Sequence record: MN445185.1
Source of the DNA: Escherichia phage vB_EcoM_EC001
Direction: 5' to 3' (one strand)
DNA: 64,000 nucleotides
Part shown: positions 14,598-34,794 of the stretch, one piece after another
Layout: the number at the start of each line of letters is the position of its first letter
Numbering within the stretch: the first letter of the stretch is position 1
Notes under the pieces: model-generated
Told to the model about the DNA's origin: nothing
Database searches by the model: none
What the model saw: only the letters and a program-made list of their open reading frames with translations
Translations under genes and position numbers: made by a program

Positions 14598-14781
14598 CGG
14601 GAAGTCCACAGAGATGATAACCGCAATCCGTCGCGACCTCGAAGAACGGGGTTGCGTGGATATTGAGTTACATCAGGCAGGCGAAACGGTGCATATCACG
14701 GCATTGGATGCCAAACGGAAACGTAGTATCACTGTGTGGGGTAAACCGTACGCAAGTGATTTCATGGAGACGATAAAATGA
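14584..14781 (+). CDS. hypothetical small protein
   Basis: 65-aa ORF; stop overlaps next start (ATGA). Confidence 0.35.
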   Translation: MYRNSGKSTEMITAIRRDLEERGCVDIELHQAGETVHITALDAKRKRSITVWGKPYASDFMETIK

Positions 14782-15449
14782 GTGATGAACAAGATTTGAA
14801 GTTACCAATGTCAATACCCGAATTGACTTATCTCACCGTCAACCGAGACGATCTCATTAATCAAGTAAGCAAACGCGTAGAGAAAGCCTTTGCTCAGAGT
14901 GGTTATAGTGAAGCGATTCGTAATTTCCGTACACCACTGGCACAATCAGTTACACAACCGCATGGTAAAGGCACTCAGTTATTAGTCGCTGTTCACCCGA
15001 CCTCACCTCTGGCAAAACAGCTGCTTACTGAAATGAACTGGCACTATAAGTGTGTTGAAGAAGTTCAGTCAGCTAATATCGAATGGGCTATGTCGCACAA
15101 GTCTCGCGAAGTGGCGTTAGTCGAATACCTGCGAAAACTACCTTGGGTTGGTGATTCTGCTGTTCTCCGCGATGGCGTAGGTGGGCCGGAAGTCTGGTCA
15201 CCTAATGCGGTGATTGATGTCGATTTCGTGGTTATCGATCCGGGTAGCAATACGCATGTCGTTCGTTTTACGGATGCGAATGTCGCTTCTGTGTGTAAAC
15301 AGTTGGGTATTGCCTACTATCAATGCGGGAAGAAAAAGAAGTCGTCGAGTGTTGAAATTGAGGTGGCGTTTACTGCGGTACAAACCCTAGATCCCGCTGC
15401 GGTTGAACATGCTTTAAACTTCCTCAAGAACCACCCAGACAGCAAATAA
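14778..15449 (+). CDS. hypothetical protein
   Basis: 223-aa ORF ending at bidirectional terminator. Confidence 0.55.
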   Translation: MSDEQDLKLPMSIPELTYLTVNRDDLINQVSKRVEKAFAQSGYSEAIRNFRTPLAQSVTQPHGKGTQLLVAVHPTSPLAKQLLTEMNWHYKCVEEVQSANIEWAMSHKSREVALVEYLRKLPWVGDSAVLRDGVGGPEVWSPNAVIDVDFVVIDPGSNTHVVRFTDANVASVCKQLGIAYYQCGKKKKSSSVEIEVAFTAVQTLDPAAVEHALNFLKNHPDSK

Positions 15450-18741: not shown

Positions 18742-20076
18742 GTGAGAAAGGTACCAAAATTCTACGGAATATCCGGCCGGTTGGTTAGTCAGGATAACTA
18801 TTTGTCCGATTTGCAAATAGAAGCTGCTGCCAAAGGTATTAAACCACCCACTATTATTAACGATGTCGCCGTTAACGGGGATGCGATCGAGGTTGCTGAA
18901 CTTATCGATCGCATGGTACAGAACAGAATCGTTGACGAAGAACTGAACTCTGCACCGATTTGTAGTTTGGATTGTCCGGCACCGATCGCGCATCGTTACA
19001 ATCTCGGTTGTAAGTGTCCGACGTGTGGCTATGTTGTAACTGAACATCGAATTGAATCCGATGTCTGGTTACGTGCACCTGATGAAATGGGTAACTTCGT
19101 CAACCCACGATTCTGGGCAATGTTCAATGCTTTCTTTAATAGCAAGTTGAAGAAGTTTGAACGTAACAAGGTCACTATCGAACGCGGTAATGACTTGATG
19201 ATGTGGATGATTGACCCGTATTACCGTATAGAAGAACCAGACGGTAAACGCGCACATGCTGTGAAACGTGTATTGGAAGAACATGGTTTCGTTCGTGGCT
19301 TGCGCAATCTGGTTGATAACCACGTTAGTATCTTTAACATCCTTACCACGCCAGAAGCCTGGAAGGAAATCTTCGCACCTAATCGGCATAACGCCGCTGA
19401 AGGTGAACGCTTACGTTTACAATGGAAGGAGCTATTCGAAACGCAACGACACGCATTCTTCCCAAGACACTTACCGCTAATCTCCTCTAAACTTATCGTT
19501 ACTGAGGAAGGTCGTCGTGGTGTCATGGTAGACCCAGTGTTCACGGGTGCTATTGATGCGGTGAAAAATATCGCGTTGCTCTATACGCGGCGTAAAGCGA
19601 TCGAACCACGTTTTCTGATTAGTCGTGCTTTGAAAGCGAACCGTCAGTTAACGTACTTCCACATGGACTTCCGTCGTGAGTCTATGGAAGGTAAACCGGG
19701 TGACTATCGTGCGAAATTGGGTTCTACCCACATCCCGTTCGGTGGTCGTGCAACCATCTCACCTATCTCAGAACCACATGATGCCTGGAAGTTAAAAGCA
19801 CCATGGCGTTGGATGGTTGGGTTGATGTCGACCCACATCGAGAACAAACTGCTACGACGCGGTTATTCGTCACGGCAGTGTGAACGTATCGTTGCGAAAG
19901 CGGCAATGCAGTATGACCCGCTTGTAGATGAAATCTTTAAAGAACTGATTCGTGAATCCCCAGGCGGTCTTGGGATCATGGTCATACCGCTACGTAACCC
20001 AACGCTGGTACAGTTGTCTATTCAAACGCTGTACATCGATGAAGTTGTTACCGATGTTAACCAGTGTTCGCTGCGT
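18742..20076 (+). CDS. multisubunit RNA polymerase beta-prime-like subunit, N-terminal fragment, exon 1 (3-prime boundary approximate)
   Basis: GTG start. Zinc-ribbon CSLDCPAPIAHRYNLGCKCPTCG; LRNPTLVQLSIQ...CSL resembles RQPTLHRLGIQ...HPLVC just upstream of the catalytic loop. ORF continues 58 codons into the intron to stop at 20250. Confidence 0.65.
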
Positions 20077-20453
20077 ATCTCTGACCGTGTGATCAAGATG
20101 GCTAACGGTTCGAAAAGAGCCCCATCGGACGGGAAACCTCTGATGCGTATTCTCCTGAAATGCTGGGAAACCCTAAAGCGTATCTACCAGAAATGGGGAC
20201 GAAAGTCTGAAACAACAGATACGATGGCCTACGCTAAACAATACTGCTAACGGTTGTGATAATGGGTAATCAGCAGCGAAGCCTCGTGAGAGGAACGTTC
20301 AACGACTATCGCTGAAATGCGAGTAGGGGTCCCAGTGGACTTCGAAGTGGGAGAACACCTAAGGCGATAGCTATGGTGAAGATATAGTCTGTGCCTTATC
20401 GAGAGATAAGGAGGGTGTCTTAGCACACCTGCTGTATACGGAAACGGTATACG
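20077..20453 (+). ncRNA. group I self-splicing intron (no internal ORF), boundaries +/- about 10 nt
   Basis: Conserved core elements R (GTTCAACGACTA, 20297..20308) and S (AAGATATAGTC, 20379..20389) with complementary gacta/tagtc. Frame changes between flanking coding segments; beta-prime homology stops at CSLR and resumes at DKQDFDGDQ. Confidence 0.75.
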
Positions 20454-20693
20454 GTGGACAAACAGGATTTCGATGGCGACCAGTTCCAGGTACGTTTACC
20501 AGTCGATGAAACTGAGATGAAGTTGGCGCTCCAATTCCGTCCAGATAACGGCTTTATGTCTTCTACTGATGTGGACCGCGTAGAACACGGCATGGTTTTA
20601 CATAACGAGCTAATCAGTATGCAGAACCAGTTCCTTATTGAAGCAGATGAGGATGATGAAGAAGGCATTCCGTTGGAAGCGGTGATGGGCTAA
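20454..20693 (+). CDS. RNA polymerase beta-prime-like N-terminal fragment, exon 2 (catalytic DFDGDQ loop)
   Basis: Begins VDKQDFDGDQFQVRLPVDETEMKLA, matching [23 protein letters not shown]; ends 79 codons later. Confidence 0.65.
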   Translation: MDKQDFDGDQFQVRLPVDETEMKLALQFRPDNGFMSSTDVDRVEHGMVLHNELISMQNQFLIEADEDDEEGIPLEAVMG

Positions 20694-20706
20694 TAGGAGT
20701 ATTGTA

Positions 20707-21288
20707 ATGTGGCTACAAGGTAGCACGGTGTGGACGAAACAGACCGAAGGTAGCGGGGCACTCAGCGTATTCAAAGAATCGTTTTCGCTGTCTAGCCTGG
20801 CACCCGATCTCGTTGACCGTGTAAAAGAACATTGTCAGGACTTAATCTCACTGGAGCGTTTCCGTGAAACATTCAGTACCGCACGTAAATTACGTTATAG
20901 CGATGCGGTAGAGATGGTAAGACAGATCGAAGAGTTGGGTGAATTCCAGTTCGCCAATGCTGCTTTACAGCCATTCCTCGTTGCCATGCCGGAATATCGT
21001 AAGTTGTATAATGACGGTATGGCGACTGGTTATGAGAACGGCTTTTCGCGGTTGGATGTGTTCAAAGGCAATGCGTATATGCGTACCGATGACCACTTCC
21101 GCGAAGCAACATCGGGCATTTCGACGAAGTACGACGAAGATAAGATTTGGCAATGGGCTACCAATGAAGATCGTGCAGTACGACTGAGTCGAATCGATAA
21201 AGTGGATATTCAACTTAACTGGGCACGCATGTCAGCTTTCGACTGGGAAGATGGTGATCCCTGTTCGGAACTTGGCGCGACGTGTTAA
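20707..21288 (+). CDS. hypothetical protein
   Basis: 193-aa ORF followed by terminator. Confidence 0.55.
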   Translation: MWLQGSTVWTKQTEGSGALSVFKESFSLSSLAPDLVDRVKEHCQDLISLERFRETFSTARKLRYSDAVEMVRQIEELGEFQFANAALQPFLVAMPEYRKLYNDGMATGYENGFSRLDVFKGNAYMRTDDHFREATSGISTKYDEDKIWQWATNEDRAVRLSRIDKVDIQLNWARMSAFDWEDGDPCSELGATC

Positions 21289-21295
21289 AAAAGAT

Positions 21296-21318
21296 GGGGC
21301 TTCGGCCCCTCTTTTTTT
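21296..21318 (+). terminator. intrinsic terminator (ggggcttcggcccc plus T-run)
   Basis: Hairpin plus T-run. Confidence 0.6.
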
Positions 21319-21370
21319 CTTCACTGGGGGCTGTATGCAGCATCCTACCTTGAATTTGACAGGAGCTAAC

Positions 21371-21757
21371 ATGATTGCGGTAGGAACCTTATCCACACGT
21401 GGCTGGGCACGTACACCCCAGGAAAAGGCGCGTGAGCTGATGAACCATTACACCGAGTCTGGCTATAGCCAATCGGTGGTTTATCGTGGGAACATTAAAT
21501 CACTTGCGTATACGCAAGCTGTGTTTGCACAAGATCCCGACGGGATGGTTGCCCAGATTAAAATGGATTTGGAGAACCTCTACGGGAACGTATTTCCTGC
21601 TGGCGTTGAAGTTGAAACCAGCTGGGAGTTTTTAAAAGATTCAGATGTACGTTACCGCATCTTCATTAGTGTCCGTGTGCAAGAAGTTGTAGACGGTGAA
21701 TGGTACGATGTTGAGCGGTACGTGGATACCGAGTCGAGTGCGATTGAGGATATGTAA
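21371..21757 (+). CDS. hypothetical protein
   Basis: Internal ATG (MIAVGTL) of track ORF 21251..21757 with AGGAG RBS. Confidence 0.5.
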   Translation: MIAVGTLSTRGWARTPQEKARELMNHYTESGYSQSVVYRGNIKSLAYTQAVFAQDPDGMVAQIKMDLENLYGNVFPAGVEVETSWEFLKDSDVRYRIFISVRVQEVVDGEWYDVERYVDTESSAIEDM

Positions 21758-22431
21758 TGAGCCAGGAACCTACATTTAACGGTGTACCGTTAAGTCAGAT
21801 GAATGAGCAGATGCGCTTTGAGTATAACAAACTCAAAGAGATTGAAAAGGATTTGGCGGAAAGCCAGAACGTCTGTAGTGTCTTCACCGAAGCACAGTTC
21901 CGTCGACAGGGCTTACCACTGCTGTCCGGGATGCTGGATGGTACTTTTAACGAAGAGACCTGGACGGCTTACGTAGGAAGTCCATTTGTACCCCTACAGA
22001 TTGTGGACGATGCTGATAACAGCAAACTGCTATTTACCATCCCTGCTCTGTTGAACACCGGTCGCTCGTTAATCACCGTTGACGGCGAACCCTCCCTCTC
22101 CGATGAGACTGAGTACATCCGTCGTCAGGTTGATGTGATTGCAACCGTCGGTGAAACCCAGATGTACAAGATGATCGATTACACCTTAACCGGGATCGAA
22201 AATATGTCTCTGGCTGAAAATTCAGTTCGTGCGAAGTACATTATTGACTTGCTGAACTGGATTTTCCGACGCTACGGCGTGGGCGGTCAATTGCCGTATC
22301 CGGAAGGGTTGGTTGAATACGTCGATAAAATTACTGGCGGTAAAAACACAGCGACAGCTGCAGAGACCTCGGTGCAAGCCCCAGCTCAAACGCAGCCAAT
22401 CGTAGGGATCGGTGATGGAGAAGATTACTAA
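21757..22431 (+). CDS. hypothetical protein
   Basis: 224-aa ORF, start overlaps previous stop. Confidence 0.55.
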   Translation: MSQEPTFNGVPLSQMNEQMRFEYNKLKEIEKDLAESQNVCSVFTEAQFRRQGLPLLSGMLDGTFNEETWTAYVGSPFVPLQIVDDADNSKLLFTIPALLNTGRSLITVDGEPSLSDETEYIRRQVDVIATVGETQMYKMIDYTLTGIENMSLAENSVRAKYIIDLLNWIFRRYGVGGQLPYPEGLVEYVDKITGGKNTATAAETSVQAPAQTQPIVGIGDGEDY

Positions 22432-23563
22432 ACCTCCTAAAAAACCAGAAGGTGTTAAGCGCCTTTTGAACACTAACGATATCCATTTGTTGCATAAACG
22501 TGTGCCCACTTGGCACATCGTGGATGTGATACGTGAGGTACTCATTAGCTGCGAAAATACGCTTGACGCCTTTTATATAGCAGGGGATTTATTTGATGAT
22601 TCCCGACATCTTCGCCAGGAAGATTCTCAAGAAGCTGTGGGCTTCTTGACGTGGTTGCTCCAGTGGTCTAAGGCCACTAATACCGCAGTTCGCATCGTTG
22701 AGGGAACACCGTCCCATGACCACGGCCAGTCCAAAATAGTTGAGTCGCTGAACATCAGTATAGGCGCAGACTGTTTGTATTTGGCAGGGATCGGGATATT
22801 TTACGATCCGGCTCTCGATGCGATGGTAGGTTGGGTGCAGGACGAATATAAAGCTGCTGGCGTCGATGAAATTAATGCTGCTGCCACTGAGGCAGAAATG
22901 GCAGAACTGATGGCGACACGAGGCTTGGAGAAGTTAGACTTTATCTTCATGCACGGCTGCTTCCAGTTTCAACTCCCTGTCGAGTCCCCTCGTTCTTTCC
23001 ACGAGGAGTTCTGGTTGCCGAGAGTCAAGCACCTGATATTTATCGGGCACGACCATCGACCTAAAGAATTAGACAAGATAAGAGTTGTAGGTAGTCCTGA
23101 GCGACTATCTCAAGGTGAAGAGGAGGACAAAGGCGTAGCTCTTGTCGATTTCACCGATACGGTTGCCAGGGACTATTTCCTGGTTAACCCACGCGCGTGC
23201 CCGCAGAAAAAGATTCGGGCACAGGAAGACTTTGATGCGCAGTTAGCAGCTTGTCTTTCTGCATTAGAATACATCGACAATCATCCCTCGTCCGCTATTG
23301 GGCGATTTGAAGTCGAGTATTACGCAGGTTCACCGATGGCCGAATACGTCAGTCGGTGGAAAAAAGAATACACGTTCCACATATCTGGAGAACGTGTGCG
23401 CTCCTCTGAAGAAGAGGAGTTGTTAGTGAAGAGTTTTTCGAACGAAGCCCCAGTGTACGAAAAACCTACTCCTGAGAACTTCGAACGGTTGGTTCTCGAA
23501 GAGCTAACATCAGTGAAGTACGACCCTGATGTTGTTACTGCAATCATTAGGAAAATAGAATGA
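22415..23563 (+). CDS. calcineurin-like metallophosphoesterase (SbcD/Mre11-type nuclease or phosphatase)
   Basis: Ordered motifs TNDIHL (D-x-H), IAGDLFD (GD-x2-D), VEGTPSHD (GNH[DE]-like), FIFMHG, IFIGHDH (GH-x-H). Confidence 0.6.
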   Translation: MEKITKPPKKPEGVKRLLNTNDIHLLHKRVPTWHIVDVIREVLISCENTLDAFYIAGDLFDDSRHLRQEDSQEAVGFLTWLLQWSKATNTAVRIVEGTPSHDHGQSKIVESLNISIGADCLYLAGIGIFYDPALDAMVGWVQDEYKAAGVDEINAAATEAEMAELMATRGLEKLDFIFMHGCFQFQLPVESPRSFHEEFWLPRVKHLIFIGHDHRPKELDKIRVVGSPERLSQGEEEDKGVALVDFTDTVARDYFLVNPRACPQKKIRAQEDFDAQLAACLSALEYIDNHPSSAIGRFEVEYYAGSPMAEYVSRWKKEYTFHISGERVRSSEEEELLVKSFSNEAPVYEKPTPENFERLVLEELTSVKYDPDVVTAIIRKIE

Positions 23564-24396
23564 ATCCAATCAGTGTTGATCGCACTTTCGGGTTCTATTC
23601 AGTGTCAATCGCCAGTTCGCTGGCGTTTGAAGGTCTGCTGCATACCGGCGAATACGCCGACTGGAAAGGCGAATTGCCTATCCATTCCTATCAGGAAATA
23701 TACCTGAATCTCCGGACATTGTTCCGTAACGCCTTCTATGCGTTTGAAGAGAATAGAGAACGGTTAACACCCGACGTGATGCTAACATCGATTGAAGAAG
23801 ATATTAATAATCTTACGGCTACCGCGAGAGCGGTAGCCCCTTCGGTGTTATGCGTTCCGTACCTTTGTAGCTATCGTAGCGCTAACAAAGTGTTTCCCGA
23901 AGCCTCGTTCAAAAACATTGCAGGCGGTCAGGATAAGATGACGCCAAACCAGCTGCACTATAATGCACTGGAACACGACACCTTAAAAATGTACGGTGAG
24001 AAACACGAAAATGACTTCCGTCAATTCGATGTTTTCCCAGAGGGTAGCCGCGACACACTGTTACTGACCCACATGCCAGCTGATCTCCTGGCACGTAAAG
24101 ATTTCCCTAAACTGGGTTTGTTGGAATCGCACACCGGTAAAGTGAAAACACAACTGGAGTGGTACACCAAACTTAACGGGAAACCCCAACATATTCCGTT
24201 TAACAAAGCGTTCCTGACGTTGTTTGGCGACGGGATAATGTTTTCACCCCTCGATCGCAAAACGCGTGGGGTGGTGTTAAAAACCGCAGAGAAGTACAGC
24301 TGGAAACAGGATACCACAATGGACCGTATTTATAACTGTCTAAAACTGGTGAATGAGCCATTTGTAATTGAACTGCTCCGCAGGCTTATGAAGTAA
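23560..24396 (+). CDS. hypothetical protein
   Basis: 278-aa ORF, ATGA overlap with previous gene. Confidence 0.55.
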   Translation: MNPISVDRTFGFYSVSIASSLAFEGLLHTGEYADWKGELPIHSYQEIYLNLRTLFRNAFYAFEENRERLTPDVMLTSIEEDINNLTATARAVAPSVLCVPYLCSYRSANKVFPEASFKNIAGGQDKMTPNQLHYNALEHDTLKMYGEKHENDFRQFDVFPEGSRDTLLLTHMPADLLARKDFPKLGLLESHTGKVKTQLEWYTKLNGKPQHIPFNKAFLTLFGDGIMFSPLDRKTRGVVLKTAEKYSWKQDTTMDRIYNCLKLVNEPFVIELLRRLMK

Positions 24397-24461
24397 GTTA
24401 AAATTTACGTTAGTGGGACATCATGTGTGAACCACTAGACTGCTTTTCCGAAAAGGATGAA

Positions 24462-25115
24462 ATGATGATTAACCAAGAAATTTTCAAAGACAAATGGCTT
24501 TACCCGCAGACCGAACCGGATCAGCAAAACCGTACGCGTAAACTCAACATCGAACCGAATGATTTCAACGGTGATGTTGAAACTATGAAGTTTAGCTACT
24601 CCTTTGGTAAGGGCGAAGGTCTCTATTTCTCTGCGCCGATTACGGTTTGCCGTACCATTATCGAAGCTCTGCAGGATTGTCTGCGTAAGAGCGAAAAGAG
24701 TATGCTGAAGTTTACTAACGAAAACGGCAACAAACCGCCCGTTAGTCTGATTGTTGGCCGTGAAGACAACCTGGTACCGTTCATCGCTATTGCCGGTGAA
24801 ATCCAGGGCGTTGGTGCCCGCCAGAAGAAGTTCTACTTCTCCTACCCGAAAGGTTTCCGTATTTTCCGCGACGGCCAGCAGGTTTCTGATTTAGAACTTG
24901 CTGAGCGCTGTGCACGTGCGTTTATCACTAACTTCGAGAAGTTCTTACAGAACCTGGAAGAGAAATATAAGCCGCGTGAATTCCAGCAAGGTGGTGGTAG
25001 CTTCGGTCGTGGCGGATACGGCGGTGGCCAGGGTGGCGGTCAGCGTAGCGGCGGTTATCAACAGCAACAATCTGCACCTCCAGCAACCACTGATTCTTAC
25101 GACGAATTCCTCTAA
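24462..25115 (+). CDS. abundant protein with SSB-like C-terminal tail (Gly/Gln-rich linker plus acidic tip); possible ssDNA-binding protein or SSB-tail mimic
   Basis: Host-like codon usage; ends GGGSFGRGGYGGGQGGGQRSGGYQQQQSAPPATTDSYDEFL, resembling the E. coli SSB tail (shared QQSAP, acidic aromatic terminus). Start chosen at ATG after AAGGA; track ORF starts 24423. Confidence 0.5.
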   Translation: MMINQEIFKDKWLYPQTEPDQQNRTRKLNIEPNDFNGDVETMKFSYSFGKGEGLYFSAPITVCRTIIEALQDCLRKSEKSMLKFTNENGNKPPVSLIVGREDNLVPFIAIAGEIQGVGARQKKFYFSYPKGFRIFRDGQQVSDLELAERCARAFITNFEKFLQNLEEKYKPREFQQGGGSFGRGGYGGGQGGGQRSGGYQQQQSAPPATTDSYDEFL

Positions 25116-25200
25116 GAAACAAAATAAAAAATACGCCCAAGGGAAACCTTGGGCTATTAACGCTTATGCGTGGTCCTGCAACACACACTGTAAGAAGATT

Positions 25201-25221
25201 GAGATAGATATTATCTCAGTG
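25201..25221. promoter_or_regulatory. promoter-like palindromic motif copy 4 (GAGATAGATATTATCTCAGTG)
   Basis: About 30 nt upstream of ATG 25251. Confidence 0.45.
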
Positions 25222-25250
25222 CAATCGACTATTCGCGGAGTTCAACTATA

Positions 25251-26885
25251 ATGAAAATTACGAAGATTAAAGACCGGATGACAATCGAGCATCACGGTCA
25301 AGAGGTCTCATTTATTGGCTTACGTTATCGGAAGGATAACAACGCACCCGACTACATCACTGTTAAAGGTAAACAGATTGCACGCGACAACATTCTCTTC
25401 ATGGAATTACAACGCGTGTGGGATTATTTAACGCCAGACGAACAAGATGAACTGTTCATGGCGTATCTGATGCTGGACGAGCTGGCAAACGAATCGACGG
25501 AAACGCAGCGTAAGCACATGCCGAAGATTGTGCAGACGATTGCGAAGTTCCACAAGGCCGAAGTGTATCGTAAGCTGTATCCCATCGATAAGCTGTGGAT
25601 TCCGCAGAACATGGAAGATACGCACGATGAAATGAACAGTAATTATCCGGAAGCGATGACGTACATTCGTCCGGACTATTACGAGTTGTTGATACTGGTC
25701 CTGATGATTAAACCGTATATTCCGGTGTTCCTTACCATGGGGACGTTCCCGATAGGTAAGAACTTGCCAATCGAAACACATCGGAAAATGGTGTACAATC
25801 TGACATACTGTCTGGAGATGCTTCAAGACACAGAAGTCATGTCTTTACCTGCTATTCCGAAACTGCGTGGGTTCCTACAGACAGTGATGGAAAAGGTAGA
25901 AAAAGAACTGGCAAACAAAGGTACGAACAGCACCAGTTTGTCGGTACTGGCTACGGTGCGGGGCTATGGCACGGATATGATGGAAGATTATATCCTGGCG
26001 TATGCTATTATTAAATTGTTGGCTGTCCGTGAAGTCGGTGGTGAATTACCGGTTGAAATCATGGTTAACAACAATATCGTCACCGGCATGTATTTTCTGG
26101 TTAAACAAGAGATTGAAACAGGTTTTGCAAACAAAATCTCTAACCAGCCGGTGCTGTTGAAAGCGCATCCAGAAAGTGTGGTATTCAATGGCGAAAAGGG
26201 CAAGATAAACGCCATGGATTTGGTGCAGGCACGTTCTCCTGCCCAGATGAAAGAATACGTCCGTACCGAGTACGTATTTAAAGAATACCGCTCTTTCTTG
26301 AAAACAATGCGTCTGGATAATGCCGCTCCAGCAGATGTTAAGTTATTGATTGATTCGCAACTGGCAACACACGACGGTCCTGTCTATACATTGCACGAAT
26401 GGTTAGTCGCATTAGCACTCCATCGTAGCGCGCATTATAAGACGTATACTGAATGTGGACCAGAAGCGTTTCGCTACGGTATGGCGTTGGCGCAGGCAAC
26501 TTATCTCAATTATGGAATGTATGACGTTGCGCAACTGTTAAGTTGCAATATGGTGCGTTCTGAGATGTCTGCCGGTTATGCAGCCGATCCAATTCGATCT
26601 GAACTCAAAGCAGATTTAGATAGATATTATCTTCAGGAGTATCGCAACCCGCGTAATCTCGAACCGCAATCTACACCACGGGAATCACTGACCTTGTTAC
26701 ACAAGGATCACATCAACCCGTATCTGTTCCATCTCAGGGCTACACCAGAAGCAGCTGCGCTGCTGAAGTGTGAGACGGATCAGCCAAACTATATACCTCA
26801 CTTGTCACTGCACAATAGCCTGGCGGAGTTTATGGTGTTGAATGCACGTCGCAAGTTAGAAGAAGTTGAATGGTTTAATTCTTAA
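25251..26885 (+). CDS. hypothetical protein
   Basis: 544-aa ORF downstream of promoter-like motif. Confidence 0.65.
   Translation: MKITKIKDRMTIEHHGQEVSFIGLRYRKDNNAPDYITVKGKQIARDNILFMELQRVWDYLTPDEQDELFMAYLMLDELANESTETQRKHMPKIVQTIAKFHKAEVYRKLYPIDKLWIPQNMEDTHDEMNSNYPEAMTYIRPDYYELLILVLMIKPYIPVFLTMGTFPIGKNLPIETHRKMVYNLTYCLEMLQDTEVMSLPAIPKLRGFLQTVMEKVEKELANKGTNSTSLSVLATVRGYGTDMMEDYILAYAIIKLLAVREVGGELPVEIMVNNNIVTGMYFLVKQEIETGFANKISNQPVLLKAHPESVVFNGEKGKINAMDLVQARSPAQMKEYVRTEYVFKEYRSFLKTMRLDNAAPADVKLLIDSQLATHDGPVYTLHEWLVALALHRSAHYKTYTECGPEAFRYGMALAQATYLNYGMYDVAQLLSCNMVRSEMSAGYAADPIRSELKADLDRYYLQEYRNPRNLEPQSTPRESLTLLHKDHINPYLFHLRATPEAAALLKCETDQPNYIPHLSLHNSLAEFMVLNARRKLEEVEWFNS
26612..26636. promoter_or_regulatory. 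promoter-like motif copy 5, internal to the 3-prime end of CDS 25251..26885
   Basis: AGATTTAGATAGATATTATCTTCAGG about 260 nt upstream of the next gene. Confidence 0.35.
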
Positions 26886-26897
26886 GGAGTATTTAAA

Positions 26898-28598
26898 ATG
26901 CAGCTTGTAAATCTACTGATGTATCCGGTCTACGATGTTCCAGAGCAAGTTCGTCGCCGCATCGGCTTTAACGCATCGACGGGTGCACTGGATGACTTAG
27001 CAGCAGCGGTTGAACTGGGCGGGGAAAAAGCTGTGGGAACACAGCAGTATCAAGAAGCGTTATCTGCCATCGTGGGCTTCGATGGCACCCAGAATGGTTT
27101 TGAGCGTCCATTCATCAACGTGTCCGATGATGACAATCGTCCTGTACAGTTCCAATGGGAATCACGTGATACCGGTATCTTTAACTTCGTGGCGGTGTTT
27201 ATTGCTAAACCTCTGAATGCAACACGCACTCAGGAAACGCAATACATCGTCTCCGGTTATACCAGTCAGGCAGAAACCAGCCTGGGTAGCCTGCTGCCGG
27301 ACGATATGGTGTTGTACATTAACGACATCTACGGCTTACAGGCAACGTATACACACGATGCCCTGGGCGGCAAAACATTGAACCCAGACTCATTCCGTCT
27401 ACTGGATAACTACGTTTTATCGAAAGCGCTGTCTGTTGAAGGTCAAACAGAAAGTACGGTAGATATCATTTCGATCGCGAAAGCAGCGGACATGGTAAAA
27501 CGTATTGAAATGAATAGCGGTGAGAAGTTCGTCCCAACGAGCGACTCTGTGCTATCCGCAACCAGTAGCTCTGCACCACAGTTGATGGTATCCCAACTCC
27601 AGCGTCCAGAAAACTACGTATCTGCAATCAGTAATGCGTATCTGGCAAGCTCTGGGGTAGATACCGAACTCGGTAGCGTGGAAAGCTTCTTTGCAGGTAA
27701 TAACTCCATCGGCGTTGAATCTGAATTGAAGCAGCGTGGTGTTATCCGTAACTACAGCAACCACGAACTGATTGCTGCGATGCGTCAAGCACTCCAGAAC
27801 GGGATGTCTGATGTATCTGGCGGTTGGAAAGCAACCAGTAAGGCGACGTTCCGTTTGGCTGATTTGCGTAATGCGATTGTCAACCCAATGCGGTTGGATG
27901 AATGTATCCGTGAATCGCTGGCGCTGGCAAGTCGCCGTGGGTTGGGTGCAGGGCTGGTTAACCAAACCGACCACTGGATTGGACGTAATGGCTTCTCCAC
28001 GCAGGGTAGTCTAGTTGCGTATGATCTGGCTATGTCTATCGGGCCGATTATGTCACGTAACCTGATTGGTGAAGTGAGCTTTGTCTTTGATAACCGCAAC
28101 ACAGATATCATGATAGAGCCTACGCTGGAAGTTATTCCTAACTCAGTCAGCAGCATCACGCACCATCAGTTACCTGCTGCATTAGGTCGTCGTTTCTTGC
28201 AGAACATGAAAGAAGCGATGGTTCAGGTTACTAAACATAACCATATTCGCTGCCACATGCTGGTCACCGCATTGTTGGGGACCGTTACTCGTATTGAAAT
28301 CCGTGTCGACGACGAACCGCTGGAATATTACACCTACGCGTCGTTTATGCAATTCCGTCTCCATACCGGCAACACCACCGATCTCAAATACGTTGGTGAG
28401 CTGGCACAGAACACCGCAACGCTGCTGAAAGCCGTGGAAGAAGGTTATACAGAATTCGAGAAAGGCCAAGGCCGGGGTCGAATGCTATCTAACATTCCAA
28501 CTAACACAGGTGGCTTAGATCCTCTTGGAGGTCTTGACCTGGGTGGTGGCTTAGGCGGTATAGGCGGAAACGGACTCGGCAACGGTCTCATTGATTAA
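26898..28598 (+). CDS. hypothetical protein with glycine-rich repetitive C-terminal tail
   Basis: 566-aa ORF, TAAGGAG RBS; tail GGLDPLGGLDLGGGLGGIGGNGLGNGLID. Confidence 0.65.
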   Translation: MQLVNLLMYPVYDVPEQVRRRIGFNASTGALDDLAAAVELGGEKAVGTQQYQEALSAIVGFDGTQNGFERPFINVSDDDNRPVQFQWESRDTGIFNFVAVFIAKPLNATRTQETQYIVSGYTSQAETSLGSLLPDDMVLYINDIYGLQATYTHDALGGKTLNPDSFRLLDNYVLSKALSVEGQTESTVDIISIAKAADMVKRIEMNSGEKFVPTSDSVLSATSSSAPQLMVSQLQRPENYVSAISNAYLASSGVDTELGSVESFFAGNNSIGVESELKQRGVIRNYSNHELIAAMRQALQNGMSDVSGGWKATSKATFRLADLRNAIVNPMRLDECIRESLALASRRGLGAGLVNQTDHWIGRNGFSTQGSLVAYDLAMSIGPIMSRNLIGEVSFVFDNRNTDIMIEPTLEVIPNSVSSITHHQLPAALGRRFLQNMKEAMVQVTKHNHIRCHMLVTALLGTVTRIEIRVDDEPLEYYTYASFMQFRLHTGNTTDLKYVGELAQNTATLLKAVEEGYTEFEKGQGRGRMLSNIPTNTGGLDPLGGLDLGGGLGGIGGNGLGNGLID

Positions 28599-28610
28599 GG
28601 ATTATTAACC

Positions 28611-29978
28611 ATGAAATTGATTGAATTCTACCGTTCGTTTCTGACCTCGCTCGGATACGGATTCGAAGGTGACATGCTGACTATCGATGATGGTCATCCG
28701 GCAATGTTCACCTACAACAAAGTGAAGCGCCGCTTGGTGCTTCCAACTGCAGCGATGATTAAGCGTGGGTTGGAAGATGACGAAGGTAGTGAATGTCATG
28801 CGTTCCACCCACTGTGTGAATCGGTACTGGCTGGCGAATCTGGAACGATTCGTTTCCTGAAGAAAGCCATCAGCGCGAACCTCTTCCTGAAAAGCTTCGA
28901 GTTAATCGATGCGATTTTGGAAACAGCAGCCGAAGGAAAAAATATCCGTCTGGCATCGTACAAGAAGTTTTTAAGCGATGTGGTTTGTGCTGACCTGAAA
29001 GATCCAACGATGGATAAGAAACTGGTTCAGAGCTGGCACGCAGTGAAGAACTACGTTTACGGGTTGCTGGAAGAAGATAAAAAGACAAAGATCACCAGTA
29101 TCTTCATCTCCAGCGATATGACCATTGAAGGTATCAAATATATCCGTGTGGCGAACTACAAACACATGTTTGAAGAAGAGTCACTGGATGGTACGGCAAC
29201 ATTCTTCGGTGCCAAGCTCCAGCGTAAGCAGGATAAGGTTATTATCTTTAACCTGCTAACTGCAGTGTTTGGTTGGTATCCTTCGGTTACGGGTTCTAAC
29301 GATCCGCGTCCGTACTTCGGTTCTTTGGCACGCGGTTGGGCACAATACGTGACCAACTACAATCAAGTGGTTCGTGGTCTGCGTGACCACACTCCACTGC
29401 GTCCGTTAGAAGAAGAATGGATTGGCCAACTGGATAACATGAGCGTTTATGATAACGTTATCCAAACTCTGCCGTATAATACCGGCCCACGTAACGATCA
29501 GGCAACAGACACCACCGCAACGGATTTCCGTATCGGGCGTACACCTGCCGGCACAAAGCCGGTCGTTGCTTTAGCTTCTCAACAAGCTCCGCAGGAAAAT
29601 CTTGATCTCAACGATCCGGTAAACTATTTCCGTGCGAAGAAAGCGCAACAGGCGTCTTCAGCTAATAGCTTCAATGCGTTAGCACCGAAGATTCAGGAAG
29701 CGCTGCGTGAGAACAACGGCCATTTACCGAAAGGGACAATTAAAGAACTGTCTCTCGGTGAAGCGCTGCGTGGTAATGCGGTGACGAAAGAAAGTGGTCT
29801 GGGTTCTGGTTTGCTGGGAAGTAGTAATAATCTCTTGGGGGGTAGCACGCAGTTGGGCGGCGGTAGCACCAACCTCTTAGGAGGGAGTAGTGACGTGTTA
29901 GGTGGTCTGGGTGGTTTAGGTGGCGGAAGTAGCAGCAGTTTAGGCAACCTACCATTCTCATCAGCTAATTTACGTTAA
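28611..29978 (+). CDS. hypothetical protein with glycine/serine-rich repetitive C-terminal tail
   Basis: 455-aa ORF; tail SGLGSGLLGSSNNLLGGSTQLGGGSTNLLGGSSDVLGGLGGLGGGSSSS. Confidence 0.65.
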   Translation: MKLIEFYRSFLTSLGYGFEGDMLTIDDGHPAMFTYNKVKRRLVLPTAAMIKRGLEDDEGSECHAFHPLCESVLAGESGTIRFLKKAISANLFLKSFELIDAILETAAEGKNIRLASYKKFLSDVVCADLKDPTMDKKLVQSWHAVKNYVYGLLEEDKKTKITSIFISSDMTIEGIKYIRVANYKHMFEEESLDGTATFFGAKLQRKQDKVIIFNLLTAVFGWYPSVTGSNDPRPYFGSLARGWAQYVTNYNQVVRGLRDHTPLRPLEEEWIGQLDNMSVYDNVIQTLPYNTGPRNDQATDTTATDFRIGRTPAGTKPVVALASQQAPQENLDLNDPVNYFRAKKAQQASSANSFNALAPKIQEALRENNGHLPKGTIKELSLGEALRGNAVTKESGLGSGLLGSSNNLLGGSTQLGGGSTNLLGGSSDVLGGLGGLGGGSSSSLGNLPFSSANLR

Positions 29979-29989
29979 GCGTTAGAAAG

Positions 29990-30016
29990 AAGGGACTGGG
30001 CGTCCCTTCTTTTTTT
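29990..30016. terminator. intrinsic terminator (aagggactgggcgtccctt plus T-run)
   Basis: Between convergent genes 28611..29978 (+) and 30016..30339 (-). Confidence 0.5.
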
Positions 30017-30339
30017 CAAGATTCTACGATAGTCGATAAGATGTTACTTACCACACCGACACTAGGAACCAATAAGGTCCTTATCTCTGGCGTGAAATCA
30101 AACGGAGTAGAAATTCCGTTCATTAACATCATCGGATAAATAATACTATTATCGTACTGTTTGAGACGACAGTACGCGTAGAAACTGTGTACCTCTGGGT
30201 AGGCATATTTTGGGTCAACAACTTCTTCTGTAGTATCTGGGTGTTTGCGAAGGAAGTCTGTATAGTCATGCAACACCTTATACTTGGTCGAATCAGGCGA
30301 AGGTATTATTTCGGATAAGGTAGCAAATTTATCTAGCAT
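30016..30339 (-). CDS. hypothetical protein
   Basis: 107-aa ORF; TAAGGAG 5 nt upstream of ATG on minus strand. Confidence 0.6.
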   Translation of the reverse strand: MLDKFATLSEIIPSPDSTKYKVLHDYTDFLRKHPDTTEEVVDPKYAYPEVHSFYAYCRLKQYDNSIIYPMMLMNGISTPFDFTPEIRTLLVPSVGVVSNILSTIVES

Positions 30340-30360
30340 CGTCTCTCCTTAAAATAAAAC

Positions 30361-30383
30361 AGATAGATATTATCTTACCGAGG
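30361..30383. promoter_or_regulatory. promoter-like palindromic motif copy 6 (AGATAGATATTATCTTACCGAGG)
   Basis: Single copy between divergent genes 30016..30339 (-) and 30406..32643 (+). Confidence 0.45.
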
Positions 30384-30405
30384 TAACCAAAAGGAGCATT
30401 TACGA

Positions 30406-32643
30406 ATGAAAACACCAGTCGAACTCATGTCAAGCGTTGCTGACCGTGAGGTGAATATCACTGGCGTATCTGGGGCACGTGCCTCAATGGTGGGTGGACA
30501 TATGAAGTCGGCGGTACCACTGGACAATCCAGATCCGACTATCCATTTTACCGGCGCTGATGTGAACTACCACGATTATTGTTTTAACGATATCGTGGAA
30601 GACAGTGGTACCGTGTGCAGTTACACAACCAAAGAAGGTGTTACTCGTGCAGCTGTTTTTGCACGCTATGGTCGTGAAGGGGATCACGATCCGCTCCAAC
30701 ATGTTATCTTCTTCACGCGCGCAGATTTAACCAACCAGCGCAAAGTGATGATTGATGTAATCGATATCAAGTATTACACCAACCACGATAACATTTTCTC
30801 GTCTAAGAAAGAGGCTACTGGGAAACTTCAGGCGTTGCTGCGCGGACAGACGCAGCACCTGGAAAAAGATGAAATGCTTACCGTACTGCCGGCACAGAAA
30901 GACGGTGAGTTTGTCGATGGGGTCAACCTGCACACTGTGACAATGTCGCACCCGGACATTATCGAGGACTCGTACACCATCTCCGAAACTGCAGCGAAGG
31001 CGATGCACGCTTATGGTTTGCGTGCAATCGACTTTACCTTGCGCGACGACGAGTACCTGCTTGATACGTATGGGACAACGGGTATTGATGGCGTTCGTCG
31101 GCCACAGTACCTGCCCAATAAAGGACAGGCAATTCGCGATGATGGGTTGGTTATAGCCGCGCGTCGTTTCGATAAGCTGTGGGCGGCTATTGACTCGCAC
31201 GTGGGCGAAACACAACATATCTCTCCACACTTCGACCGTTGTGAGTATGTTGATGCTGACCCTGAGCATTACAAAGCGCGTCAGGCCGGCGACTTTGAAA
31301 AGATGGAACGTACCGGTTCTCGTGTCGTTGATATTCAGGTATGGCGGGACGAAACCAAATGCGATCGTGGTGTTAACAATATCGCATGTACCGAAGAGAA
31401 CAAACGCGAGTTAGATCACTACGCGAACGCTTTGAAACGTTTTTACAATGATATCGTGCGGTTCTATTTTGCGATGTCCAAAGACAAGAACATTGTCTGG
31501 TCACCGAAAGCGTTTGAGATCCTTGACAAGGCGTTCTGTTCTGAGACGTATGAAGTCTATAACGACTTCCGTGAAGAGATTGGTCGTGAATACGATGAAG
31601 CCATGCGTAAAGGTGAGTATAACCGTTCTGCTGATAAGAACGTGTTGAACAAACTGGCGCAGCCGGTTCAGCGTGGTCTCTGGGACCCAATTGGTAGCTA
31701 CACGATACGCATCGTGGTACGTTATCCAATCCCAGTTACCGTCTCATCGAAAATCACCGACCGTTCAGGTACAAAAGGTATCGTGGGTGCAGTGCGGCCT
31801 GATGAAGAAATGCCGATTAACGAGTTCGGAGAACGTGTGCATGTCATTCGTTCCATGAACGCCGTAATTCGTCGTTCGACTTATGCTGCGCTGTTCCACA
31901 TGTATTGGTCTGCTGCATCCGAGCAGTTGAAGATGCGGTTGAAACCATTACTTGCCGCCAACCAGGTTGACGAAGCCTGGGAAATCCTGATGGACTATAT
32001 CGATCGCTATAACCCACGCTGGACATTCTATCTCAATGCCAGTCACCCGGATACTGGGTCACGTCTGGAACTCTTTAAAGAGATTTACGACTTCACGATT
32101 CGTATCTGGCTTCCCCACGAATTGAATGCTACCCAGGTAGAAATCTGCCGTGCTCTAGGCGAGTATGCACCACGCAAGTCTAAGCTACTGATTACTAACT
32201 ATCAGGGTGAGAAAGAGTGGACGAAGAACCAGTTCTACGTCGGCATGGTAGAGACTCTGCGCCTGGATAAAACCGGTCGTGAGTTCTCCAGTATCTCGTC
32301 GATGTACACGAACTATTTGGGTTGTATTGATGCATCCAACCAAGGACGTGGTTCATATCCGATTAACCTGAAAGGGTTGAAGTGGGGTGGTCCTTCCGAG
32401 CAGCGTCTTACCGACGGCTTTGGTCCGGGCAACTTCCCCGAAACTCATGACCGCGCTAATAACCCTGCGGTACACCGTGCGATCGTAACGGGGTTGTATA
32501 ACTCGCCAACACCAACCAATCCGGGGGTGCTGGTCGATCGTAAGAAACTGCCAATGGGAGATTCGCAGATTGACAGGATGATACGTAACATCCATCGCTG
32601 TGAAGGTTTTGAATTAGTGCGTCCAATTCGGGAGGATAAATAA
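30406..32643 (+). CDS. multisubunit RNA polymerase beta-like subunit, C-terminal half
   Basis: GARASMVGGHMKSAVPL resembles GANMQRQAVPTL; IIEDSYTISE resembles NFEDSILVSE; DRSGTKGIVGAVRPDEEMPINEFGERVHVIRSMNAVIRRSTYAALFHMY resembles GRHGNKGVIS..PVEDMPY..G.PVDIVLNPLGVPSRMN.GQI.E.HLG. Confidence 0.65.
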   Translation: MKTPVELMSSVADREVNITGVSGARASMVGGHMKSAVPLDNPDPTIHFTGADVNYHDYCFNDIVEDSGTVCSYTTKEGVTRAAVFARYGREGDHDPLQHVIFFTRADLTNQRKVMIDVIDIKYYTNHDNIFSSKKEATGKLQALLRGQTQHLEKDEMLTVLPAQKDGEFVDGVNLHTVTMSHPDIIEDSYTISETAAKAMHAYGLRAIDFTLRDDEYLLDTYGTTGIDGVRRPQYLPNKGQAIRDDGLVIAARRFDKLWAAIDSHVGETQHISPHFDRCEYVDADPEHYKARQAGDFEKMERTGSRVVDIQVWRDETKCDRGVNNIACTEENKRELDHYANALKRFYNDIVRFYFAMSKDKNIVWSPKAFEILDKAFCSETYEVYNDFREEIGREYDEAMRKGEYNRSADKNVLNKLAQPVQRGLWDPIGSYTIRIVVRYPIPVTVSSKITDRSGTKGIVGAVRPDEEMPINEFGERVHVIRSMNAVIRRSTYAALFHMYWSAASEQLKMRLKPLLAANQVDEAWEILMDYIDRYNPRWTFYLNASHPDTGSRLELFKEIYDFTIRIWLPHELNATQVEICRALGEYAPRKSKLLITNYQGEKEWTKNQFYVGMVETLRLDKTGREFSSISSMYTNYLGCIDASNQGRGSYPINLKGLKWGGPSEQRLTDGFGPGNFPETHDRANNPAVHRAIVTGLYNSPTPTNPGVLVDRKKLPMGDSQIDRMIRNIHRCEGFELVRPIREDK

Positions 32644-34748
32644 TGGCGGGTCGTTCTGTACACGTGCGTGATTTGCGTATGCTTAACTCTGATCAGGTGT
32701 GGAAACTACGCGGGCGTTATTACGTGACATTCGACGATGGTAAGTCGTTGGAAATGTCTAGTCGCCACATCAAACTCAGCTGGCCGTATTGGGGTGTGTC
32801 GCGTCTGTATCCGCAGGTGCCCACTCCATCGACCATGGCGTATCGTCCAGGTCAGGTAGCAACAGATGACCTGCATCTGGACTTTATGTCGGAAGCAGCG
32901 GTACTGGCCCGTAAAGCAGGTGTCGACCTTGCTGAAACGCGTTATATCCTGAGTCAACATGTCTACGCCGATGCGTTCAACATGACAGTGAAGAACCTGC
33001 TGTCCTATTGCACGACAATCGACTTTGATACGATGATGGAGATCTACGACCATCCGAACTTCGAACTCATCCGTCAGTGGGAAGTGCAATATCCTACTGG
33101 CTACGATGAAGATGGTCGGGATATGGTTGAAGAAGCGTACAAGCTTATCGAGAAAATCTTCAAAGACCCTGCGCTACGGTATAACCCGGTCGTGATGTCG
33201 GTACTGGATGGTACTGTGAAGATGAACCAGGTACTGCAAGCCTTCGTGCGTGGTAAAACGTCAGAAATTGACTCACGTGTATACACCAATCAGGTGTGGG
33301 AAGGCTTCTTTACCGGAATGCATTCGGTTATTTCGCGTTTGAAAGAATCTGGTGCAACTTCACGTTCCCACTTGTACAACACTGACAAGATTGCCGAAGC
33401 AGAATACGCCTCACGTAAACTGCAGCTGGCAGCAAACGTACTGATGTATTTCACGTACGACGACTGCGGTACAACTCACGCACACCGCTACACGTTTAAG
33501 GATACGCAGCTGGATGAGCGTGCCTATAAAGCGATGGTGGGGATGCGTTATCGTTTAGAAGGTGATAATGGTCCGTGGTTGAGATTTGAGAAAGGTGGAT
33601 ACGCAGACCTGGTTGGCAAACCGCTGGTCTTCCGTAGTGCCATGACCTGTAAAGAGATGGCGAATCAGTCCATCTGTGCGACCTGTATGGGGGATTTGAT
33701 TTATAACCTCTCTGAAGGTACGTCACCAGGTCATCTGGCATCCACGTCCATCTCGGAAAAGGGTACACAGGGAATTCTCTCTACCAAGCACCTTGACTTC
33801 TTGCGTTATCTGCTCAACCTGGTACTCACCCCACGTATGCGTGAGTATATGACCGAATACAAACATAACTCTCTGAAAGGGTTGTGCTTGCTGCCAAAAC
33901 CACAGCGTGGGAATTGGTCAGAATACGAGTTGGTTGTTACCGACAAAGTTTATTCGGAGCTGAGCCAGATTGCGTATCATGAAGATCTCGATGCAATTGA
34001 TGAAACGGCATTACCAGAAATCACCGACTTAACTTTCCAACGTCGTTTAGAAGATGGGCAGATAATCGCTGCGGATTCTATCGATGTGCGAATGGGTGTT
34101 TGTGGGAACTTCTCTAAACCGTTCCTGCACTACTTCTTGAAACAACGAGCGAACATTCGTATCGAGAAGAAGACGGTTCAGATTCCTTTGAAAGGATGGA
34201 ACCCGAAACACCCGGTCCTGGTCTACACCAACCGTTCTGAATCGATGGCGGAGTTCGTAGCCGGCTTAGAAACCAAGCTCCGTTCGATTGCTGCCGATAA
34301 GAACGAAGACATTGTGGAAATCATCAACACAGCCTCGACTGTGAAGCTGAACAAGAAACAAGGTCGTGTGAAACCGGTGACGTTGGTTGAAATGGGTGGT
34401 GCTACAGAGAAACAGTGTACTTATGCGTTGATGGACACGTTTAAGTATATCCAGCGTAAGCTGAGTGGTATACCGATGACGCACATTGCGATTATGTTGG
34501 CGATATCTCGTGTAGAGTCGCCAACCAATCCGTTCCCGGCAGTAGGATTTGACAGTGAGGATTCTACTAATGCCACCGGGAAACGGTTTGTCGATCACAA
34601 CACGCTCATTAGTTTGCGCTCGGCAATTCCGATGTTGTTGTTTGAAGGACAGCAGGGGAATATCGATCGCGTTGGTTTTTATACCGAGTACAAAATCCCG
34701 GCATCGTTGTACGATGACCTAGGAGCCGCTGTGGTAATTGAGTTGTAA
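32643..34748 (+). CDS. multisubunit RNA polymerase beta-prime-like subunit, C-terminal fragment (bridge helix and trigger-loop region)
   Basis: ATG overlaps the beta stop by 1 nt. ISRLKESGATSRSHL resembles the bridge helix ALKTANSGYLTRRL; ASTSISEKGTQGILSTKHLDF resembles SIGEPGTQLTMRTFH. Confidence 0.55.
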   Translation: MAGRSVHVRDLRMLNSDQVWKLRGRYYVTFDDGKSLEMSSRHIKLSWPYWGVSRLYPQVPTPSTMAYRPGQVATDDLHLDFMSEAAVLARKAGVDLAETRYILSQHVYADAFNMTVKNLLSYCTTIDFDTMMEIYDHPNFELIRQWEVQYPTGYDEDGRDMVEEAYKLIEKIFKDPALRYNPVVMSVLDGTVKMNQVLQAFVRGKTSEIDSRVYTNQVWEGFFTGMHSVISRLKESGATSRSHLYNTDKIAEAEYASRKLQLAANVLMYFTYDDCGTTHAHRYTFKDTQLDERAYKAMVGMRYRLEGDNGPWLRFEKGGYADLVGKPLVFRSAMTCKEMANQSICATCMGDLIYNLSEGTSPGHLASTSISEKGTQGILSTKHLDFLRYLLNLVLTPRMREYMTEYKHNSLKGLCLLPKPQRGNWSEYELVVTDKVYSELSQIAYHEDLDAIDETALPEITDLTFQRRLEDGQIIAADSIDVRMGVCGNFSKPFLHYFLKQRANIRIEKKTVQIPLKGWNPKHPVLVYTNRSESMAEFVAGLETKLRSIAADKNEDIVEIINTASTVKLNKKQGRVKPVTLVEMGGATEKQCTYALMDTFKYIQRKLSGIPMTHIAIMLAISRVESPTNPFPAVGFDSEDSTNATGKRFVDHNTLISLRSAIPMLLFEGQQGNIDRVGFYTEYKIPASLYDDLGAAVVIEL

Positions 34749-34751
34749 ACC

Positions 34752-34777
34752 GAGGGGCCTTGCGCCCCTCTTTTTTT
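34752..34777 (+). terminator. intrinsic terminator (gaggggccttgcgcccctc plus T-run)
   Basis: Hairpin plus T-run after the RNAP genes. Confidence 0.55.
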
Positions 34778-34794
34778 GTGCGAAGAGGGGCAGC

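Follow-up and report, generated by a model that had tools for sequence, protein, structure and literature searches.

Does a metallophosphatase gene that stands alone in the genome of a jumbo phage encode one half of a DNA-end nuclease and, if so, where is the other half encoded? This question is raised by the gene at 22415–23563 (plus strand) in a 64,000-nucleotide (nt) stretch of the genome of Escherichia phage vB_EcoM_EC001 (MN445185.1), which is referred to here as the window. A reading of the sequence alone had recognized in this gene a calcineurin-like metallophosphatase with a full set of motifs, consistent with either an SbcD/Mre11-type nuclease or a phosphatase, and had placed its SbcC/Rad50-like partner, if there was one, elsewhere in the genome. 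The analysis presented below makes it very probable that the gene encodes the SbcD/Mre11 nuclease subunit of a phage SbcCD/Mre11–Rad50-like complex in an SPN3US-like, ΦKZ-related jumbo phage.

Identity and conservation of the gene

The open reading frame (ORF) extends from an ATG at 22415 to a stop codon at 23561–23563 and encodes 382 amino acids (aa). A Shine–Dalgarno-like AGGGA (22404–22408, plus strand), read from the sequence, lies 6 nt 5' of the ATG. The ORF is real and matches the annotation of the SPN3US counterpart SPN3US_0027 (gp27; 1149 nt, ‘putative nuclease SbcCD D subunit’). A megablast search with the region 20000–26000 retrieved 25 phage genomes of at least 99% identity, all of them SPN3US-like jumbo phages (genus Seoulvirus); relatives of this region include Salmonella phages 1252 and SPLA3 and Escherichia phage Lh1B (DNA identity 98.9–99.2%). 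SPN3US itself is ~99% identical to the window at the gene and 98.6% identical over 20466–35231. Tblastn found proteins 100% identical to the SbcD-like product in SPLA3, SPFM19 and other close relatives, and the records of the relatives label it ‘putative nuclease SbcCD D subunit’ or ‘SbcD-like subunit of palindrome specific endonuclease’.

Homologs are also present well beyond this genus. They were detected by tblastn in 289 phage records, and phmmer connects the protein with ΦKZ gp65 (E=2.8e-31) and RAY gp238 (E=4.4e-33). Together with Goslar gp178, these two proteins have been grouped as the core gene product cg8, a ‘putative nuclease’ (Prichard et al. 2023, PMC10299810 supplement, Table S3). 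The flanking gp62-, gp66- and gp67-like genes stand in the same order as in core block 2 (gp62-...-65-66-67-68), and genes nearby show matches to subunits of the multisubunit RNA polymerases that characterize ΦKZ-like phages. By orthology and by its kept position in core block 2, the gene is the Chimalliviridae core gene cg8.

Family assignment

Sequence profiles place the protein firmly among the SbcD-like nucleases. It matches phrog_100 (‘SbcD-like’) in the PHROG database with E=8.5e-64, far more closely than chance would allow, and a search of the PDB with the family profile, a check that the sequence-only reading had itself proposed, matches Mre11/SbcD chains only: Thermotoga maritima Mre11 (2q8u, E=2e-12, over the nuclease and capping domains), Pyrococcus furiosus Mre11, and the SbcD proteins of Escherichia coli (6s6v, E=1.5e-6) and Staphylococcus aureus. 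When the single sequence was used as the query against the PDB, only noise was returned (Netrin receptor DCC, E~1).

Structure prediction leads to the same family. The AlphaFold2 model is confident (predicted local distance difference test, pLDDT, 92.1; predicted template-modelling score, pTM, 0.82), and the best 34 Foldseek matches in the PDB are all Mre11/SbcD, headed by E. coli SbcD in the SbcCD head complex (7yzo_A; E=1.5e-14, template-modelling (TM) score ~0.61). The next family is LpxH (E~1e-5, TM ~0.35). An identity as LpxH or another non-nuclease metallophosphatase was rejected on this separation in the fold search, LpxH not being the best match over the full length. In the model, the phosphoesterase core is followed by an Mre11-type capping domain of mixed beta/alpha structure, approximately aa 235–330 (23117–23404, plus strand; the bounds are taken from the model), and by a C-terminal helical tail (aa 331–382; 23405–23560, plus strand) with predicted helices at 331–341, 356–363 and 371–381 and pLDDT of 61–85. 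This tail could be the SbcC/Rad50-binding helix-loop-helix. Profile, structure and fold evidence agree in predicting an SbcD/Mre11-type DNA-end nuclease.

The metallophosphoesterase motifs

Conservation of the motifs was assessed in 40 homologs drawn from a database of 5.8 billion proteins, the most distant of them ~25% identical (alignment A1), and in a direct alignment that includes E. coli SbcD, T4 gp47 and the RAY and EL proteins (alignment A4); all motif coordinates refer to the plus strand. Motif I (D22-I-H24, the D-x-H metal ligands; 22478–22486) is at least 90% conserved in the 40 homologs; its aligned counterparts are SDWHLG in E. coli SbcD and GDWHLG in T4 gp47. In motif II (G57-D58-L-F-D61, the GDxxD motif with its bridging Asp; 22583–22597) conservation is complete for G57 and D58 and at least 90% for D61. 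The histidine of motif IV (H180, within MHG; 22952–22954) is invariant in A1 and 90% conserved in A4. Motif V (G211-H212-D-H214, GHxH; 23045–23056) combines invariant H212 and H214 with a G211 that is invariant or at least 90% conserved among the 40 homologs, and its GHDH aligns with GHIH and GHFH in A4. These four motifs are canonical and conserved, and they align with those of E. coli SbcD and T4 gp47.

The claim of a full motif set therefore stands for motifs I, II, IV and V and has to be amended for motif III, which reads E96-G-T-P-S100-H101-D102 (22700–22720) and not GNH[D/E]. Residues G97, T98, S100, H101 and D102 are invariant in A1. S100 sits at the position of the metal-ligand Asn of the canonical GNHD, behind a two-residue (TP) insertion: the hidden Markov model alignment to T. 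maritima Mre11 sets LEGTPSHDwk over LPG--NHDWK, and the mapping in A4 agrees. The Asn-equivalent position is Ser in distant chimalliviruses, or Asp in RAY, and the EL protein reads GTHSHD (A4); the family form of the motif is EGT-x-[S/D]-HD, not GNHD. No mention of this variant, including as ‘GTPSHD’, was found in the searchable literature. The sequence-only reading had made its case depend on conservation of the motif residues among homologs, and in the 40 homologs they are conserved.

The sequence thus predicts a phosphoesterase core with a largely intact two-metal site: motifs I, II, IV and V are preserved, and the catalytic His-Asp of motif III is in place. Replacement of the Asn by Ser or Asp, together with the two-residue insertion, probably retunes the second metal site and does not abolish it, because strong conservation has kept the variant fixed, plaque formation by ΦKZ depends in part on the gene (see below) and every other ligand is deeply conserved.

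A distant SbcC/Rad50-like partner

Nothing resembling an SbcC/Rad50 ATPase is encoded in the 64 kb analysed. A tblastn search of the window with SPN3US gp186 gave only noise (E>3), the P-loop pattern G-x4-GK[ST] is absent from all open frames of at least 100 aa, and PHROG annotation of the large ORFs revealed no SMC/Rad50-like ATPase. The gene that follows, which the sequence-only reading had considered too short for such an ATPase, indeed encodes 278 aa (23560–24396) and has no P-loop. The possibility that the two flanking genes are halves of a split or degenerate Rad50 was also considered and rejected: neither carries a P-loop, the downstream product (gp28) has a predicted flap endonuclease (FEN)-like fold and not that of an ABC ATPase, and the upstream one (gp26) is unconserved.

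The expected partner lies elsewhere in the genome, as had been supposed. In SPN3US it is gp186, ‘a predicted SbcC subunit’ found to be essential by amber mutagenesis (Thomas et al. 2016, J Virol, PMC5105663); the same study named gp27 the SbcD subunit, proposed a T4 gp46/47-like role for the pair and described the two genes as ‘drastically separated’ in SPN3US, ΦKZ and their relatives. Gp186 comprises 836 aa and is encoded at 168,900–171,410, ~148 kb from gp27 and hence outside the window. It matches phrog_77 (‘SbcC-like’) with E=3.7e-96, its best sequence matches in the PDB are Rad50 ATPases, and Pfam yields sub-threshold SMC_N, AAA_15 and AAA_23 signals. A Walker A motif (GGNGCGKT, aa 36) is separated by ~700 residues from the C-terminal Walker B/D-loop (LLLDEPSEGMD) and H-loop (VVSHE), and a single CxxC (CPQC, aa 413 of 836) marks the exact middle. 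This layout with one central CxxC is kept in five divergent orthologs, including those of the ΦKZ-type phage KTN4 and of 201φ2-1, RSF1 and pTD1, and is also that of E. coli SbcC and T4 gp46.

The two genes occur together across these phages. The SbcC/SbcD pair has been described as ‘practically universally conserved’ in jumbo phages (Iyer et al. 2021, PMC7824862), and our tblastn searches yielded 297 phage records for the SbcC-like protein and 289 for the SbcD-like one. Counts by host genus are near-identical: 81/81 for Pseudomonas, 62/62 for Erwinia, 21/21 for Serratia, 19/19 for Aeromonas, 16/16 for Klebsiella and 13/13 for Ralstonia. Among Salmonella phage records SbcD was found in 24 and SbcC in 33, probably because gene models of the SPFM phages are frameshifted or mis-assembled. 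Homologs in SPFM Salmonella phages (P0032, P0035, P0037 and P0152–P0161) gave high scores to the SbcD and gp28 queries over short aligned stretches only, and these entries look like frameshifted or mis-assembled gene models.

Separation of the pair is equally general, with more than 70 kb between the two genes in 9 of the 9 genomes compared for which coordinates were available. The SbcD and SbcC genes lie at 21.0 and 168.9 kb in SPN3US, 58.0 and 170.5 kb in KTN4, 63.8 and 180.7 kb in 201φ2-1, 22.0 and 166.3 kb in Caitlin, and 214.6 and 64.1 kb in RSF1. The ΦKZ member of the SbcC family is gp165 (cg44, ‘putative SbcC-like protein’), and cg8 and cg44 belong to different conserved blocks (PMC10299810).

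Small ORFs were observed next to the SbcC genes. In SPN3US the gene is directly followed by the 63-aa gp187 (L003:21401-21592, outside the window; phrog_16515), for which a transmembrane segment has been predicted and a likeness to T4 gp47.1 noted (Thomas 2016, PMC5105663), and in 201φ2-1 a tiny ORF, gp251 (41 aa), lies directly 3' of the SbcC gene.

Proposed function and alternative explanations

The established biology of SbcCD, Mre11–Rad50 and T4 gp46/47 suggests how such a complex might work. The SbcD-like and SbcC-like proteins would assemble in trans into an M2R2-type complex, in which the SbcC-like heads, by binding and hydrolysing ATP, would clamp DNA ends or hairpins and gate their entry to the active site of SbcD, where they would be cut. 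The resected, recombinogenic ends could then feed recombination-dependent replication and genome processing or maturation, as with T4 gp46/gp47. This action would probably take place inside the phage nucleus. The literature searched holds nothing specific on the function of ΦKZ gp65 and gp66 or on SbcD in connexion with the ‘phage nucleus’, and no localisation data for a chimallivirus SbcCD.

Several observations weigh against this assignment. Motif III is without its canonical Asn metal ligand, the SbcC-binding motif at the C-terminus is deduced from predicted helices only, and in none of the 9 genomes compared are the SbcD and SbcC genes adjacent, unlike sbcDC or T4 46/47. Pfam Metallophos (PF00149) reaches 15.1 bits (E=0.032), under the gathering score of 21.5 bits, over aa 16–81 only (motifs I–II); a few distant homologs carry a precomputed PF00149 match. 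For this protein and nine neighbours Pfam found nothing at E<=0.01, and for this protein nothing but the same sub-threshold match at E<=10. The low score is a sensitivity limit of the Pfam model and not evidence against the fold. The literature searched reports neither biochemistry nor interactions for this protein or its orthologs in chimalliviruses. Finally, antisense knockdown of ΦKZ065 (‘Nuclease’) strongly reduced plaques (++) and that of ΦKZ165 had a milder effect (+) (Gerovac et al. 2025, PMC12571901), a difference that fits a role independent of SbcC but that unequal knockdown efficiency would explain equally well. In a transposon screen, no insertions were recovered in ΦKZ orf165 (PMC12676376).

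An SbcC-independent nuclease would work mainly with the product of the adjacent and translationally coupled gene, gp28 (ΦKZ gp66), the two proteins forming a module for DNA processing, and its co-occurrence with SbcC would reflect no more than the core-genome status that both share. The unequal knockdown phenotypes, the assignment of SbcD and SbcC to different core-gene blocks, the overlap of the gp28 start with the SbcD stop in the window and the position of gp28 homologs, just 3' of SbcD in seven of seven divergent genomes, are all in keeping with this explanation. Yet adjacency is weak evidence of shared function, because core block 2 also holds the unrelated ChmC (ΦKZ gp67), the non-virion RNA polymerase (nvRNAP) factor gp68 and PicA. 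Moreover, the model retains a capping domain and, at the C-terminus, a helical tail, an arrangement like that of Mre11/SbcD proteins that bind Rad50. Sequence comparison does not connect gp28 significantly with the FENs, whose catalytic carboxylates it seems to lack, and knockdown of ΦKZ066 was only mild (+) (PMC12571901). We consider this explanation unlikely. More improbable still is a generic calcineurin-like enzyme, a phosphatase or phosphodiesterase whose substrates would be nucleotides, lipids or phosphoproteins and not DNA. It would account for a Pfam signal that is generic Metallophos and sub-threshold, for the name ‘LpxH’ that one source gives to a 65%-identical homolog, for another homolog called ‘predicted MPP superfamily phosphohydrolase’ and for LpxH structures among the secondary Foldseek matches. 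The phosphatase half of the original alternative is nevertheless disfavoured, because only Mre11/SbcD structures match over both core and capping domain; the gene also co-occurs with that of an SbcC-like ATPase. Just as little credence is given to a catalytically weakened Mre11-like scaffold, whose second metal site would suffer from the lost motif III Asn and which would mainly organise or regulate the SbcC-like ATPase. All family members examined do share the change of Asn to Ser (Asp in RAY) and the two-residue insertion, but even deeply divergent members keep all other metal ligands and the catalytic His101 unchanged, which would be unexpected for a dead enzyme, and Ser or Asp could still ligate the metal directly or via water. 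The nuclease subunit of an SbcCD-like complex thus remains the preferred identity.

The coupled downstream gene

The gene downstream (23560–24396, plus strand; 278 aa) belongs to the SPN3US gp28/ΦKZ gp66/EL orf31 family and represents core gene cg9, ‘hypothetical’. Its ATG overlaps the SbcD stop codon (ATGA), and gp28 is possibly an accessory factor translationally coupled to SbcD. Among the seven divergent chimalliviruses the homolog is directly adjacent to SbcD in six, and in RSF1 one small ORF lies between. Phmmer E-values to divergent homologs range from 1e-24 to 1e-34, conservation being about equal to that of SbcD. The invariant polar residues of the family (N50, T53, R56, N57, Y101, T170, H171, E189, S190, G193, K196 and K204) suggest an enzyme.

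Neither Pfam nor the sequences of the PDB gave a match to gp28. Its AlphaFold2 model is very confident (pLDDT 94.8, pTM 0.91) and predicts a FEN-like fold (FEN/5'–3' exonuclease, PIN-like). The gp28 family was compared by hhalign with a small, divergent FEN alignment built from annotated genomes, for which a search for homologs of E. coli Xni brought little gain, as it returned close relatives only (at least 76% identity). The similarity was not significant (probability 0.2%, E=0.34); in its weak register the invariant N50 and Y101 of gp28 stand opposite the invariant catalytic D13 and D63 of FENs (PolA numbering). Membership of gp28 in the true FEN family is therefore unsupported by sequence, and the protein is probably FEN-like in fold only, without the canonical carboxylate cluster.

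It is tempting to see in these elements a lineage-specific end-resection module of nucleus-forming jumbo phages that has not been described before, in which SbcD with its fixed motif III variant would act with a coupled FEN-fold cg9 protein of remodelled active site (invariant N50, Y101, H171, E189, H191 and K196 replacing the usual carboxylates) and a distal Rad50-like ATPase. We hold this to be doubtful.

Other features of the window

The genes of the window are tightly packed and nearly all on one strand, with a G+C content of 46–53%. The upstream gene (21757–22431, plus strand; 224 aa) is the counterpart of SPN3US gp26 and matches phrog_5171, of unknown function. Its 3' end contains the SbcD start, the overlap being 17 nt. 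Phmmer detected no match between its product and the positional counterparts in seven divergent phages, and gp26 is, to judge by this comparison, a fast-evolving protein. Downstream of gp28 follow the counterparts of SPN3US gp29 (24423–25115, plus strand) and gp30 (25251–26885, plus strand), so that core block 2 is intact in the window. Gp29 is a homolog of ΦKZ ORF67 and essential in SPN3US (Thomas 2016, PMC5105663); ΦKZ ORF67 is ChmC/Imp6, a nucleus-associated RNA-binding protein. Gp30 matches ΦKZ gp68, an nvRNAP sigma-like factor, by position and size.

Several insertions relative to SPN3US were observed. One of ~363 nt (20090–20465, plus strand) is located in the 3' part of an RNA polymerase beta-subunit gene, between an ORF at 18742–20250 and a downstream exon-like ORF at 20454–20693. 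It has no internal ORF, and Rfam identifies 20090–20411 as a group I intron (RF00028; 69.4 bits against a gathering score of 50, E=2e-17). The 933-aa helicase ORF (34738–37539, plus strand) carries ~1.18 kb at ~35232–36414 where SPN3US has ~145 nt, that is, ~1 kb extra. Judging from its domains, this insertion is an intein with a homing endonuclease, because Pfam finds LAGLIDADG_3 (E=3.6e-10, aa 380–430) and Hom_end-associated Hint (aa 170–221). Matches of the same ORF to the PHROG categories ‘terminase large subunit’ and ‘DNA primase’ (aa 140–525) are probably matches to the intein. Two further insertions, at ~989–1556 and ~14780–15435, contain one ORF each (985–1560, 191 aa; 14778–15449, 223 aa); neither ORF has a Pfam match, and both may be mobile or accessory genes.

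Significance

The gene is already annotated as SbcD in GenBank, and its identification is correct but ordinary, not new. As posed, the finding matters little: the SbcD annotation exists, the distant SbcC and the separation of the two genes were described in 2016, and both are core genes of nucleus-forming phages. Only two elements are potentially new, the undescribed motif III variant, which being fixed bears on metal use and catalysis, and the FEN-like fold predicted for the adjacent core gene, which offers a hypothesis, open to testing, on one of the numerous ‘hypothetical’ core proteins of the Chimalliviridae. Knockdown and mutant data indicate that SbcCD is important to chimalliviruses, and the putative complex may bear on recombination-dependent replication inside the phage nucleus.

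Comparison with known systems

SPN3US gp27 and gp186 are the closest known pair: gp27 is the same gene as the one studied here, and nothing material differs. The account of this pair by Thomas 2016 includes neither the motif III variant nor biochemistry. The ΦKZ pair gp65/gp165 is orthologous, and the local gene order gp62-...-65-66-67-68 is the same. Gp65 is ~26–34% identical to the vB_EcoM_EC001 protein; divergence is seen in the N-terminal leader and in the C-terminal third, and the tblastn alignment spans just 62% of the query. No similarity at the BLASTP level has been reported between T4 gp46/47 and the SPN3US proteins (PMC5105663).

E. coli SbcD (6s6v, 7yzo) shares ~17–20% identity with the phage protein and has GNHD in motif III in place of GTPSHD. 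In E. coli, sbcD and sbcC overlap in one operon, whereas the phage genes are ~148 kb apart in SPN3US, and E. coli SbcC has 1048 aa against the 836 aa of the phage SbcC-like protein.

The T4 proteins gp47 and gp46 are Mre11 and Rad50 homologs required for recombination-dependent replication and for degradation of host DNA. They too are an SbcD/SbcC pair encoded by a phage; the same motifs can be aligned, and gp46 has one central CPTC hook. Gp47 has a canonical GNHD in motif III, however, and gp46 is a much smaller protein of 560 aa. Only two small ORFs lie between the clustered genes 46 and 47, whereas the members of the pair described here are encoded far from each other.

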